In this document: positions 43,014 to 47,185 of the stretch, in pieces
Layout: each line of letters starts with the position of its first letter
Numbering within the stretch: the first letter of the stretch is position 1
Origin: Bdellovibrionota bacterium
GTDB taxonomy: Bacteria; Bdellovibrionota_C; UBA2361; OMII01
Assembly: GCA_044356215.1 (NCBI GenBank)
Contig: JBIKWQ010000018.1
Span: 1-47,185 of the forward strand
Direction of reading: 5' to 3'
DNA: 47,185 nucleotides
The notes under the pieces: model-generated
The model's input: the letters and a program-made list of their open reading frames with translations, nothing else
The model's database searches: none
What the model was told of the DNA's origin: nothing
Program-made: the position numbers and the translations under genes

Positions 43014-44105
43014 CTAGTAACGCAAATCAAAGTAGATATCAAATATCGCCCCACCCTCTTGTCCAGTACGATAGTCTTTCGAAAGGCCAAAGTTAGGAAG
43101 CACTTCAAGCTGGAGTCTCGCGGAATGGTTCTCCGTAGTGTGGTCCAAAATATATTCGGCTGCAATATGAAGAGTTCCATCCATGCCTCGAACGATAAGC
43201 AATCCTCCCTGAGATGACAGGGTGCTAACTTTCTCTCTAGCAGACTGGGAGAGGTGAACGAGTTTTGCTGGGTCTAAAACATTCCCCTGATATAAAAGCT
43301 TTTGGTCCTTGAAACTAGCTCCGAAGAAGCTTTCAAAGCTCTGCAACGTTCCCAATTTCAAACTCACCTTCTGCCCCCTATCGCCGAACGGGATTTCAGA
43401 TACACTCACCTGCTGGTTAACACTATTGCCCAACTGATAGGTATCAAGGGTCAACGGTCTACTAGCATTAACGAATGACTCATTATTAGAACTAAGTGAA
43501 TGTGGGTAAATAGAAGCTCCTCCGTCAACGATCGCATCCACCGCGCCTAGCGCTCTCGTGACCTTAAAATCGGCAGCTGGAAAGATGCTTGTTTTAAATT
43601 CAGGTACTAGGCTGTACTTCCCTTGCACAGCCTGAAAAGTGACCTTATCCGTTCTCCATCGTTGATCACTCAAGAGCTCAATGAATGAGCTAAGAAGCGG
43701 GTTAGCGTGACTTATACTAAACGCATCAGTTCCCGCGGCAAAGCTAGTTAATGTCCGATCTGTCACTACAGTCCCATTAATAGTTCGACCCGTATTGTCA
43801 TAAGTAATTGCCGCGTGCTTAACCATACCTTGTAATCCATCTAGCGGTCCGATGTAGGTTGAGGTTCCTTTTGGAAATTGATTAGTAAAAATATTTTTAC
43901 TTGATACGCCACCACTTATTGCGCCTGCAATTGATCTCCTAAAATTTTTTTCGCTCATTTCAATTGACACTGATGTCAGAGCATTACTTCCATCCAGACG
44001 GCTAGATGACCCTACTTCACATACTACAGAATCGACGACAATCCGGTCTGTTTCACGCTCCTGAGTCTGTCCTGTTCTTTGTCCGTTAACCTCTTGCCCA
44101 GCCAT
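43014..44105 (-). CDS. Hypothetical beta-rich protein
   Basis: ORF of about 363 aa from ATG 44105 (GAGG RBS). Visibly AT-richer than the core genes. Ends AIFDIYFDLRY. Confidence 0.65.
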   Translation of the reverse strand: MAGQEVNGQRTGQTQERETDRIVVDSVVCEVGSSSRLDGSNALTSVSIEMSEKNFRRSIAGAISGGVSSKNIFTNQFPKGTSTYIGPLDGLQGMVKHAAITYDNTGRTINGTVVTDRTLTSFAAGTDAFSISHANPLLSSFIELLSDQRWRTDKVTFQAVQGKYSLVPEFKTSIFPAADFKVTRALGAVDAIVDGGASIYPHSLSSNNESFVNASRPLTLDTYQLGNSVNQQVSVSEIPFGDRGQKVSLKLGTLQSFESFFGASFKDQKLLYQGNVLDPAKLVHLSQSAREKVSTLSSQGGLLIVRGMDGTLHIAAEYILDHTTENHSARLQLEVLPNFGLSKDYRTGQEGGAIFDIYFDLRY

Positions 44106-44342
44106 AAAACCTCTGTAATACACCCGTTTACCTAGTTCGATGAACAACCGCACGTCCCAGCGATCTGAATCAACTGACGTCTCTATGCGTTATGCGAAAG
44201 ATTTCTTCGATGTGACTTATAACTCTACCGAGTGTCGAATCTCGGAATCAACTAGACTCTCCTCGCATCAGATTTGACTGACTTTGGGTGTTATATCCAT
44301 TTGAATTCTAGGCAGATACGGGTCTTGAGGTGAATCGTTCCT

Positions 44343-45603: not shown

Positions 45604-46524
45604 ATGCCTCAACGCAAACTAACCAAATTTCCAGACGTATTAAAACGCCACAGGATCGCTGCTGGATATCAGAGCCTCTCTCAAGTAGTGCTCGCCGCGG
45701 AACGTTTAACTAAAGGGGCAAAGGGTCCAAAAGTTGCGCTTTCAAAAACTAAGCTAAATCAATATGAGAACGGGTTAGTCGACACCCTAAAACCTGACAC
45801 CCTCAGGCTCCTAGCTAAATTATACAACATCCCCTTTCAACGGCTGGCGGCTGCTTGGTTTAGTGAGCGTTACGGAATTGACGAGTCGAGTTCAGGGGAG
45901 ATGTCACTATCGCTACCAGAAACAGGCACATTGGAACTCACGGGCGGTAATCAGTGCATTTCGATTATCGGACTAGATTGCTTTAAGCGGAAACAATCCG
46001 AGCTCGCAAAGGGGTCCTACGTAATAATCGCGACGCGACGATTCCTTGATGACACCCCGGTATTTTTTGAGATGGTCGCACGAAATATTTCGCGGGGAGT
46101 GCGCTACCTTTACCTCTGTCCGGAGAGCCATCGAGACCTCTACCGAAATTTAGTTAGCAAGCTAGAGAGCTCTCTCGGAATACGCGGCAAACAGATCGAT
46201 ACAAAGCAGACGTTCTTTTTTAGTAGGCACGATTTTGAATCTCCGATAAATCAGGTGGTGTATGTCGAACCCATGGGAGGACTTACCGGATATATAGGAC
46301 TAACCGACGACGAACTACCTTTGGCATATCAGATCACAACCGAGAGACTCGCGATGAGGATTTTCACTTCGTTATTATCTGCCATAAGAGCTAGTCATGA
46401 TCCTGATTTTATCAAGGAACTCCGCCGGCATGAGGCTGACGTGAGTGAACATTTAAAGGCCAATCAGAGCACTGAGATAATTCGCGAGACGCTGAAAGCG
46501 GCGGGATTAACTCAGCCGAAATGA
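45604..46524 (+). CDS. XRE-family HTH regulator with uncharacterised C-terminal domain
   Basis: LKRHRIAAG...SKTKLNQYENG...TLRLLAKLYNI HTH; C-terminal RNISRGVRYLYLCP. Confidence 0.8.
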   Translation: MPQRKLTKFPDVLKRHRIAAGYQSLSQVVLAAERLTKGAKGPKVALSKTKLNQYENGLVDTLKPDTLRLLAKLYNIPFQRLAAAWFSERYGIDESSSGEMSLSLPETGTLELTGGNQCISIIGLDCFKRKQSELAKGSYVIIATRRFLDDTPVFFEMVARNISRGVRYLYLCPESHRDLYRNLVSKLESSLGIRGKQIDTKQTFFFSRHDFESPINQVVYVEPMGGLTGYIGLTDDELPLAYQITTERLAMRIFTSLLSAIRASHDPDFIKELRRHEADVSEHLKANQSTEIIRETLKAAGLTQPK

Positions 46525-46580
46525 CGACTTCTCTATAGCGTTAGCTAGCTCACTAAGTTGTCGTGGAGCATAGAACTGGC

Positions 46581-46829
46581 AGAACTCCTGCAGCCCGGCT
46601 ACTAGTCAGACCTCCTTAAGCCGGGCTACTAGTTCACCCTCAGTAGCCGGGCTACTAGTTTTTTTCTTCTCCCGGTCGCACCTTCTTTTCACCCTCAGTA
46701 GCCGGGCTACTAGTTTTTTCACCCTCAGTAGCCGGGCTACTAGTTTTTTTCTTCTCCCGGTCGCACCTTCTTTTTCACCCTCAGTAGCCGGGCTACTAGT
46801 TTTTTTCTTCTCCCGGTCGCACCTTCTTT
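46581..46829 (+). repeat. Modular REP-like repeat array upstream of the Y1 transposase
   Basis: A = CACCCTCAGTAGCCGGGCTACTAG at 46635, 46690, 46720, 46776. B = CTTCTCCCGGTCGCACCTTC at 46666, 46751, 46807. T2-T7 linkers. Two degenerate A copies at 46581-46633. Confidence 0.93.
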
Positions 46830-46911
46830 CCAGCAGCGAGCAACTCTCGCCCGCCTGGGAGCGATATAACTAGCGTCTTTAAAATAAATACAGATCCAAG
46901 GAGGATCTCTG

Positions 46912-47185
46912 ATGATAAAATACCATCAAAAAGGCAGTGTGCTATTTATTACCTTCTCTGTTGAGGAAGGGTTGCTTTTTCAAGCCAACCCGCTTTGTAC
47001 GGCCATCATACAGAGCTGCCTCGTGGCGGCATCGAAGCTCTATCCGATCAAAATCTCGCACATGACCGCCGAGGCCACACACTTTCACTCCATGATTACT
47101 GTTTTAGACCCAGATCATGTGCAGGCATTCATTAGGCACTTTAAAACCGAGTCGGCTCATGCGATTAACGCAATACTGGGAAGAA
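46912..47185 (+). CDS. HUH/Y1 (IS200-like, RAYT-type) tyrosine transposase, truncated at the window end
   Basis: AAGGAGG RBS. Open to the edge: MIKYHQKGSVLFITFSVEEGLLF...SCLVAASKLYPIKISHMTAEATHFHSMITV...FIRHFKTESAHAINAILGR, with HUH motif HFH and an N-terminal FIT strand. Confidence 0.8.
   Translation, partial: MIKYHQKGSVLFITFSVEEGLLFQANPLCTAIIQSCLVAASKLYPIKISHMTAEATHFHSMITVLDPDHVQAFIRHFKTESAHAINAILGR

Follow-up and report, generated by a model that had tools for sequence, protein, structure and literature searches.

The repeat array at the right-hand end of the window (by which we mean the whole stretch analysed here, 47,185 nucleotides from a Bdellovibrionota bacterium) is the left tip of a multi-copy element, present as head-to-tail copies that the element's own enzyme has likely made. 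The element is about 1.3 kb long and consists of a gene for a 321-aa RAYT-like HUH enzyme lying between inverted end motifs. The family is an undescribed variant of the TIRtron/class-2 TnpA-Y1 elements, and not a system that shuffles two modules. As to how the array arose, we lean, with a confidence a little better than even, towards enzyme-seeded re-copying of the tip: a single-strand cut at a fixed point outside the motif, with the end rejoined to variable points in the interior. For the way in which RAYT-type enzymes may amplify and spread repeats, the family offers a natural record: in dozens of its ends the putative outer cut point is constant while the inner joins vary, and this predicts where the enzyme cuts. 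The window array itself is one ordinary example of a family trait.

The array and the element it belongs to

The sequence-only reading of this DNA described an array of two modules, A and B, directly upstream of a transposase-like gene, and as a description of the letters it holds. Over 46580-46829 the order from 5' to 3' is a' a' A B A A B A B; with the joins written in, it is a' (46580-46606), a' (46607-46633), T, A, T7, B, T4, A, T6, A, T7, B, T5, A, T7, B, T3. The four A units (24 nt, starting at 46635, 46690, 46720 and 46776) are exact copies, as are the three B units (20 nt, starting at 46666, 46751 and 46807), and all A and B units share one orientation. The hairpin in A, AGTAGC-CGG-GCTACT, folds as stated (6 bp, -3.8 kcal/mol with DNA parameters); B is nearly unfolded at -0.4. 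The gene does begin at 46912, with AGGAGG at 46899-46904, 7 nt before its ATG, and it encodes the two motifs that had been noticed (F12-I13-T14 and H57-F58-H59). As we now parse them, the features are these:

45604..46524 (+), host neighbour, an HTH regulator of 306 aa, outside the element; the G014 orthologue has an unrelated downstream gene
46580..46633 (+), two older-type left-end units (a', a'), outermost, closer to the end unit of the C37 copy and retained in a shorter allele
46634..46689 (+), AB left-tip copy: A 46635-46658, B 46666-46685, and T-runs
46690..46719 (+), short A-only left-tip copy: A 46690-46713
46720..46775 (+), AB left-tip copy: A 46720-46743, B 46751-46770
46776..46829 (+), innermost left end: end motif plus linker B (46807-46826), aligning with the left ends of the C37, C60, C101 and C9 copies
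46830..46911 (+), leader common to the other copies by alignment; contains the AGGAGG
46912..47185 (+), first 91 codons of a 321-aa class-2 Y1/HUH transposase-like gene, truncated by the contig end

Could the array be an artefact of assembly at a contig end? The break falls inside a repeated gene, at the same base as in the C101 copy, and no single contig among those of eight public runs spans the whole array. We nevertheless find an artefact hardly credible, since separate studies have yielded contigs with the same junctions (a'-a'-A, B-A, A-A and A-B-leader), and since other members of the family commonly have arrays, among them those in a genome of five contigs (G037) with megabase contigs. 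The array is real and its exact unit count provisional, because the junctions are seen in separate runs and none of the contigs crosses the whole. Within its own genome such repetition is uncommon: only 10 of the 131 contigs have a 24-mer that occurs four times inside a 250-nt span.

What did not survive is the idea that B is an independent module shuffled in with A. In this genome B is found nowhere but in the window array and always behind an A, and in alignments with other copies of the element it corresponds to their linker, the stretch that separates the last motif from the leader. Since B is the linker just inside the left end, the array consists of A and AB copies of one tip, every one of which begins at one and the same outer point. 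The C60 left end has the same pattern with more unit lengths, some units being clipped inside the motif. The a' units agree with the C37 end unit at 23-24 of 27 positions, as against 18-19 of 27 for A, and so are likely older end copies. The proposed degeneration away from the gene is no rule of the family; it is the outer units that are degenerate in 16 of 51 arrays and the inner ones in 19, with 16 ties. A CRISPR- or integron-like array was considered and rejected; there are no unique spacers or cassettes.

The genome holds five starts and four ends of the gene. Complete copies lie on contigs C37 and C9. Further starts are on C80 (the window), C60 and C101 and further ends on C12 and C126; these are unpaired, and a full-length relative, P0001 (321 aa), fits all three starts. 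The right end of the window copy presumably lies beyond the end of the contig. The core of A stands upstream of all five gene starts, in one to six copies each, and its reverse complement about 150 nt past the stop codon at all four gene ends. A mirror downstream of the gene, which had been suggested as something to look for, is therefore present. The remark that there are no inverted pairs is right inside the array and wrong at the scale of the element, where the motif is half of an inverted pair in the complete C37 and C9 copies. No tnpB lies between the gene and the right end in these two.

The same layout is found across the family. Our end analyses cover the own-genome copies and 79 of 80 related loci (L066 is excluded because its gene start lies beyond the contig), with only those ends long enough for the search window; the loci are kin, so that the counts are non-independent, and nearly all the assemblies are fragmented metagenome bins. 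Read from inner to outer, the consensus is GTAGCCCSGSTACAG, then purines, then an A-run. It is present in inverted orientation at 70 of 78 left and 67 of 75 right ends, against a background of 11 in 284 flank windows. At the innermost end of the window copy the 13-mer lies at 46784-46796, the family consensus reading on the - strand. Left and right ends of the same element agree at 15.2 of 22 positions, against 14.5 when compared with other elements, kin being non-independent here too.

The perfect hairpin of A, taken at first for a defining feature, is not conserved: the fourth stem pair is G-G in 29 of 38 right ends, and two common motif variants fold at 0 to -1.5 kcal/mol. GTAG pairs with the far end of the same motif, and no GC-rich stem is conserved on the 3' side of a GTAG foot. 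In the own genome the 13-mer has a double foot, but it is short and this is not conserved across the family. Since the window's hairpin is not preserved in its perfect form across the family, the motif behaves more like a terminal inverted repeat than like a REP stem. Right ends also carry a conserved block of about 35 nt following the stop codon, within it a stem of 4-5 pairs that is almost invariant and varies at one pair only, and beyond it a spacer of about 95 nt. Since the spacer keeps its length and not its sequence, which is lost even between copies 95% identical in protein, block and spacer suggest two binding sites at a set distance. Rfam gave no match in three loci, and a structured RNA in the block is no more than a possibility.

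Some smaller observations belong here. The A hairpins with their T-runs (window 46642-46797) form four sites on the + strand that resemble intrinsic terminators, where shuffles give 0.7 in all, and the array could in this way block read-through from the HTH gene into the transposase. No sigma-70 consensus promoter was found in the leader region. Elsewhere in the window, a 379-aa ORF at 43014-44153 (-) has no Pfam match.

The transposase-like protein

The window ORF runs open off the contig end after 91 codons, and the fragment matches Pfam Y1_Tnp weakly (E 0.006, 17.1 bits, cut-off 23). P0001 is 100% identical to it over the 91 aa, and full-length proteins score 22-33 bits with the same model. 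The catalytic tyrosine motif lies beyond the contig end for the window copy and was read from P0001 and the C37, C9 and C60 copies. It is Y118-T-Y-C-N122-P123 (Y-x3-NP), with 59-61 aa between HuH and Y, and none of H57, H59, Y118, N122 and P123 varies among the 18 relatives aligned. For the predicted structure, whose mean pLDDT is 78, the best fold match is 4ER8, TnpA_REP (Foldseek E 1.2e-5); the structural alignment gives Z 13.5 and an rmsd of 3.3 over 152 residues, the next match being at Z 7.6. With the tyrosine motif in the full-length relative and TnpA_REP as the best fold, the call of a RAYT-like Y1/HUH enzyme made from the first 91 codons is borne out.

The NCBIfam RAYT model NF047646 gives 41.7-56.7 bits in four of four proteins, under its cut-off of 80, and the IS200/IS605 model NF033573 gives 17-26 bits, under its cut-off of 55. 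The C-terminal tail of about 190 aa has no Pfam match, and a C-terminal HTH (Bac_DnaA_C, HTH_23, HTH_28) had no Pfam match in four of four proteins at E up to 1. An Atlas search with the C-terminal part returned unnamed Myxococcota clusters at 0.90 or less, which we treat as a lead only.

Between own-genome copies pN is 0-0.03 and pS 0.08-0.41 in 15 of 16 pairs, and the sixteenth pair, with an overlap of only 25 codons, has no changes. As the differences are mostly at silent sites, the copies are not very recent and have been kept intact; the pattern indicates strong purifying selection on the gene. The window copy looks mosaic. Its leader is all but identical to that of C60, part of its coding region shares silent variants with C9, and its last third is identical to that of C101, which suggests recombination between copies or mixing in the assembly. 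Two distant paralogues of the same long Y1 family, 23-26% identical (G000:C101:23040-23951 and C107:1550-2476), have short upstream repeats without the end motif of the window element.

Distribution and movement of the element

Relatives are present in 38 of 41 related genomes (the own genome included), with up to 19 matches in one relative, and in 97 of the 124 genomes of the phylum Bdellovibrionota that were searched. Most related loci come from Bdellovibrionota or deltaproteobacterial bins, and the runs that hold the window stretch are mostly lake or freshwater metagenomes. A metagenome scan with the leader pattern gave one locus, the C101 site. Among 76 candidate stretches in viral contigs no relative was confirmed, and none was confirmed in plasmids.

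Several lines of evidence speak of movement. The five starts and four ends in the own genome sit at unrelated sites, and the element is found downstream of orthologues of two host neighbours at 0 of 26 and 0 of 27 loci, some of which have a short flank. Pairs of elements at unlike sites lose their match at the same point, +175/176 after the stop, 9 nt beyond the right motif (L006/L007, 97.5% identical; L055/L059, 95.6%; L052/L056; L008/L082). In two genomes, G001 and G005, the elements are 95-96% identical while nearby host DNA is 77.6% identical. These two also share an 8.8-kb gene block beyond the left array (L290 = G001:C20:1536-10318; L291 = G005:C50), 98.3% identical, which on its other side stops where the right end of the element lies. 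Between the two genomes the element, at 95%, is less similar than the block, and its array copies number 8 against 4. Contig C20 of G001 has two identical elements in direct orientation, one at each end. From this we infer that element and block were transferred horizontally together, mis-binning being possible. G001 and G018 hold internally deleted copies, end pairs without a gene, and end pairs around other genes (L146, L148, L145). Near-identical copies across species, gene-less derivatives and the shared block together suggest a mobility unlike that of domesticated RAYTs.

It is possible, if tentative, to go further: the RAYT-type HUH enzyme may be a true transposase that moves its own gene, gene-less miniatures and versions with passenger genes. 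Besides copying its tips anew, it may take neighbouring operons of about 9 kb from one species to another, starting at one end as IS91/ISCR elements do. With a true transposase of RAYT type acting on inverted ends, this would be a family of insertion sequences not described before, and one that shows in living form what the mobile ancestor of REPtrons was like, and if the unit carries cargo between species it would be a major route of gene flow in a phylum where relatives occur in 97 of the 124 genomes searched.

Against recent mobility is the divergence of the own copies at silent sites. Some copies are old and are shared with their flanks between species (L033/L046, L072/L075). We found no target-site duplication; the longest shared flank word is 3.77 against 3.64 +/- 0.12 for shuffled pairs (57 elements, a coarse measure made without empty sites). 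Nor was a clean empty site or an excised circle found in run contigs or at the loci of relatives. The contigs of eight runs hold no empty allele, though such contigs can show that an allele is present but not that it is absent. Around the C9 copy, gene order varies within the genus. For L006, L007 and L055 the right flank occurs without the element in relatives, but the left flank does not continue there.

At L007 (3636-3903) the right end adjoins the middle of a gene fragment 87% identical to a gene of G043, with an unrelated left flank; the other copy of that gene in the L007 genome is only 71% identical to the G043 gene. The fragment may reflect a rearrangement, a captured fragment or misassembly. 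The exact motif matches 16, 140, 18, 14 and 5 times in five genomes, 16 times in the own genome and 140 times in G001. Of the 16, 12 are at element ends and four on C35 (L160: 455-640, 2886, 3067, 4841), where copies of the end motif, including a tandem array, stand in one orientation without a transposase gene, between an ORF of unknown nature, a hydrolase of the beta-lactamase fold and an Ldh_2 gene. In G001 a 39-kb region (C27:1-39000, L144-L145) has end motifs in many of its intergenic gaps, with right-end and left-end pairs around other genes (a DUF4397 gene, for instance) as well as short pairs without a gene; it looks like an island built around the end motifs.

Copying of the tips, and what the family resembles

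Arrays comparable to that of the window, on whose presence in homologues the sequence-only reading depended, are widespread: 52 of 70 left ends and 25 of 67 right ends carry at least two motif copies. A stricter match leaves 68 ends with repeats. At 45 of these, 7-12 nt are shared outward of the motif and at three, 13-18 nt; at the other 20 only 0-6 nt are shared, which counts against a fixed cut. Outward sharing of at least 20 nt occurs at 0 of the 68 ends, whereas inward sharing of at least 20 nt occurs at nine and reaches 156 nt. Clipped extra pieces lie outside the last motif at 21 of 137 ends, against none in control windows, and a few duplications end within the motif (e.g. L062, L082). 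The two ends of the element behave as mirror images, with a shared outer boundary and variable inner boundaries. Junctions lie in T/A runs across the family, in keeping with the original suggestion of T-tracts. At 24 clean junctions the microhomology is at most 1 nt in 14 and 2-5 nt in 10, nearly all of it A/T; being short and A/T-rich, it does not separate cutting from slippage.

The array also varies between populations, as had been proposed. A contig from run X14 joins 46632 to 46774 at the window locus, leaving a' a' A B, the T-run after 46713 varies in length in contigs of runs X3, X4 and X7, and the C101 locus has one extra outer unit of 13 nt in L115. The five-contig genome G037 has six copies of a distant subfamily (L119-L124; 27% identity) with a different end motif. 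Its right ends are re-copied too, by up to 414 nt and into the gene, and at its left ends two spacer types recur in different orders. Some of the left-end units there carry sequence absent from the element interior, so the outer boundary is not always fixed.

The mechanism we favour would run as follows. The enzyme would bind the end motif and make its cut 7-12 nt beyond that motif, within the T/A run of the tip, forming a phosphotyrosine at Y118. An interior 3'-OH would then receive the tip, whether through strand transfer or through copying that is primed anew, as the BIME model has it; depending on where the join falls, the copies would be short (A) or long (AB, or reaching up to 156 nt inward). 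With two copies in place, slippage at the T-runs would likely add or remove whole units, and this would explain the identical recent copies in the window. The same cut would define the moving unit, so that gene and ends would be mobile, though slowly, and the arrays would be by-products with no function of their own. That the joins are made by the enzyme is an interpretation drawn mainly from the polarity of the duplications and its match with the element boundary.

The polarity of the duplications is also what tells most against the same element with passive arrays, in which replication slippage or unequal recombination between T-runs does everything and no enzyme cuts. Slippage alone should copy host DNA as well, yet no end out of 68 shares at least 20 nt outward where nine do so inward, and the outer edge coincides with the boundary of the element. 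Five of the 24 junctions lack microhomology, and the G037 subfamily behaves alike with a different end motif. We think passive arrays unlikely, but the idea deserves a hearing. All joins in the window lie in T-runs of variable length, and that length differs between runs; microhomology is present at 19 of 24 junctions (35 of its 41 bases are A); and the shorter X14 allele is what one slip between identical units would be expected to leave.

More improbable is a domesticated RAYT with a REP/BIME-type repeat, a stationary gene that spreads the repeat and whose array is a BIME-like cluster. It would account for the class-2 signature and TnpA_REP fold, the strong purifying selection, the loci inherited with their flanks and the motif clusters away from the gene (on C35 and among the 140 exact matches in G001), and rayt 3' ends taken into BIMEs are described in the accessible text of Nunvar 2010 (PMC2817692). 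It does not sit well with many near-identical gene copies at unrelated sites, with 16 exact motif matches in the own genome of which 12 are at element ends and the other four on C35, with units that are head-to-tail and not inverted doublets, with the lack of a conserved stem behind the GTAG foot, or with NF047646 scores under the cut-off. The two-module array as first conceived, a functional array built by an enzyme that reorders independent A and B modules and appends them in a fixed direction, seems to us very improbable. Order does vary between loci (C80, C60, C101) and between populations, and the spacer types of G037 recur in different orders at different copies. However, B belongs to the element as its linker and is always accompanied by A, decay has no general polarity, there are no unique spacers, 18 of 70 left ends are single-copy, and unit sequence and number differ at every locus.

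The family belongs to the class-2 TnpA-Y1 elements, and it operates in the way of a TIRtron whose core is of TnpA_REP type. Their signature, in the accessible text of Quentin et al. 2018 (PMC6006769), is Y-x3-NP with 58-67 aa between HuH and Y; our family has HuH and Y-x3-NP 59-61 aa apart and a TnpA_REP-like fold. The TIRtrons (TIRYTs) of Di Nocera et al. 2013 (PMC3733652), as that paper's accessible text presents them, likewise have a gene for a RAYT-like tyrosine transposase with a terminal inverted repeat on either side, at a set distance, and their repeats are moderately abundant, occur as dimers and clusters, and are partly self-complementary in some cases. TIRtrons probably correspond to subclass 2.1 of Quentin et al., to judge from the accessible text of the latter. 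There are clear differences. The GGGGWSAS motif given there for the majority of described TIRs is absent from our consensus on either strand, and the 20 subclass-2.1 TIRYTs are reported to have an HTH or DnaA_C tail where our proteins have about 190 aa without a Pfam match. Our family has many copies per genome, and polar tandem re-copying of both ends is not described for TIRtrons in the accessible text of PMC3733652, although tandem REP clusters that include flanking DNA were already published there. We found no account of the element family in the literature, with figures, ISfinder and subscription papers outside that scope. A term search of the text supplements of PMC3733652 gave no match; GTAGCCC has six matches in the supplements of PMC6006769, and the two inspected are long hairpins of subclass 2.6.

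The E. coli TnpA_REP/REPtron (4ER8; PMC3333891, PMC2817692, in their accessible text) shares the fold, the HUH and Y-x3-NP motifs, and inverted GTAG-bearing motifs that flank the gene. BIMEs resemble the window array in their tandem amplification beside the gene, and a model of cutting, 3'-OH extension and rejoining from the accessible text of PMC3333891 fits the arrays. Our protein is twice as long as TnpA_REP, multi-copy and apparently mobile, whereas the accessible text of PMC8266576, PMC3333891 and PMC2817692 reports no evidence for movement of tnpA_REP. Of all RAYTs it is those of Group 1 that duplicate at the highest rate, according to the accessible text of PMC5581495. The unit here is a single head-to-tail copy of one end and not an inverted doublet, with few dispersed copies in the own genome. 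A RAYT/REPtron has a single non-mobile gene per repeat, abundant dispersed repeats, and a GTAG foot 5' of a conserved GC-rich stem; the own genome has five gene starts, and its family has no such stem.

Two further subclasses in the accessible text of PMC6006769 invite comparison. Subclass 2.3 is like our family in its length of about 325 aa, its long C-terminal tail and its several moderately diverged copies per genome, but it has a 55-aa insertion, a HuH-Y distance of about 110 and no identified flanking repeats there, where our family has 59-61 aa and the motif at both ends. Subclass 2.4 combines long double-foot REPs (GTAG...CTAC) with proteins of roughly 194 aa, against a short motif and 321 aa here. 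Finally, IS200/IS605 elements (TnpA of IS608, ISDra2) have a Y1 HUH fold, several copies per genome and no target-site duplication, as in our family, and differ in having Y-x3-Q where our family has Y-x3-NP, ends that are inverted copies of one motif, and no tnpB between gene and right end in its complete copies.
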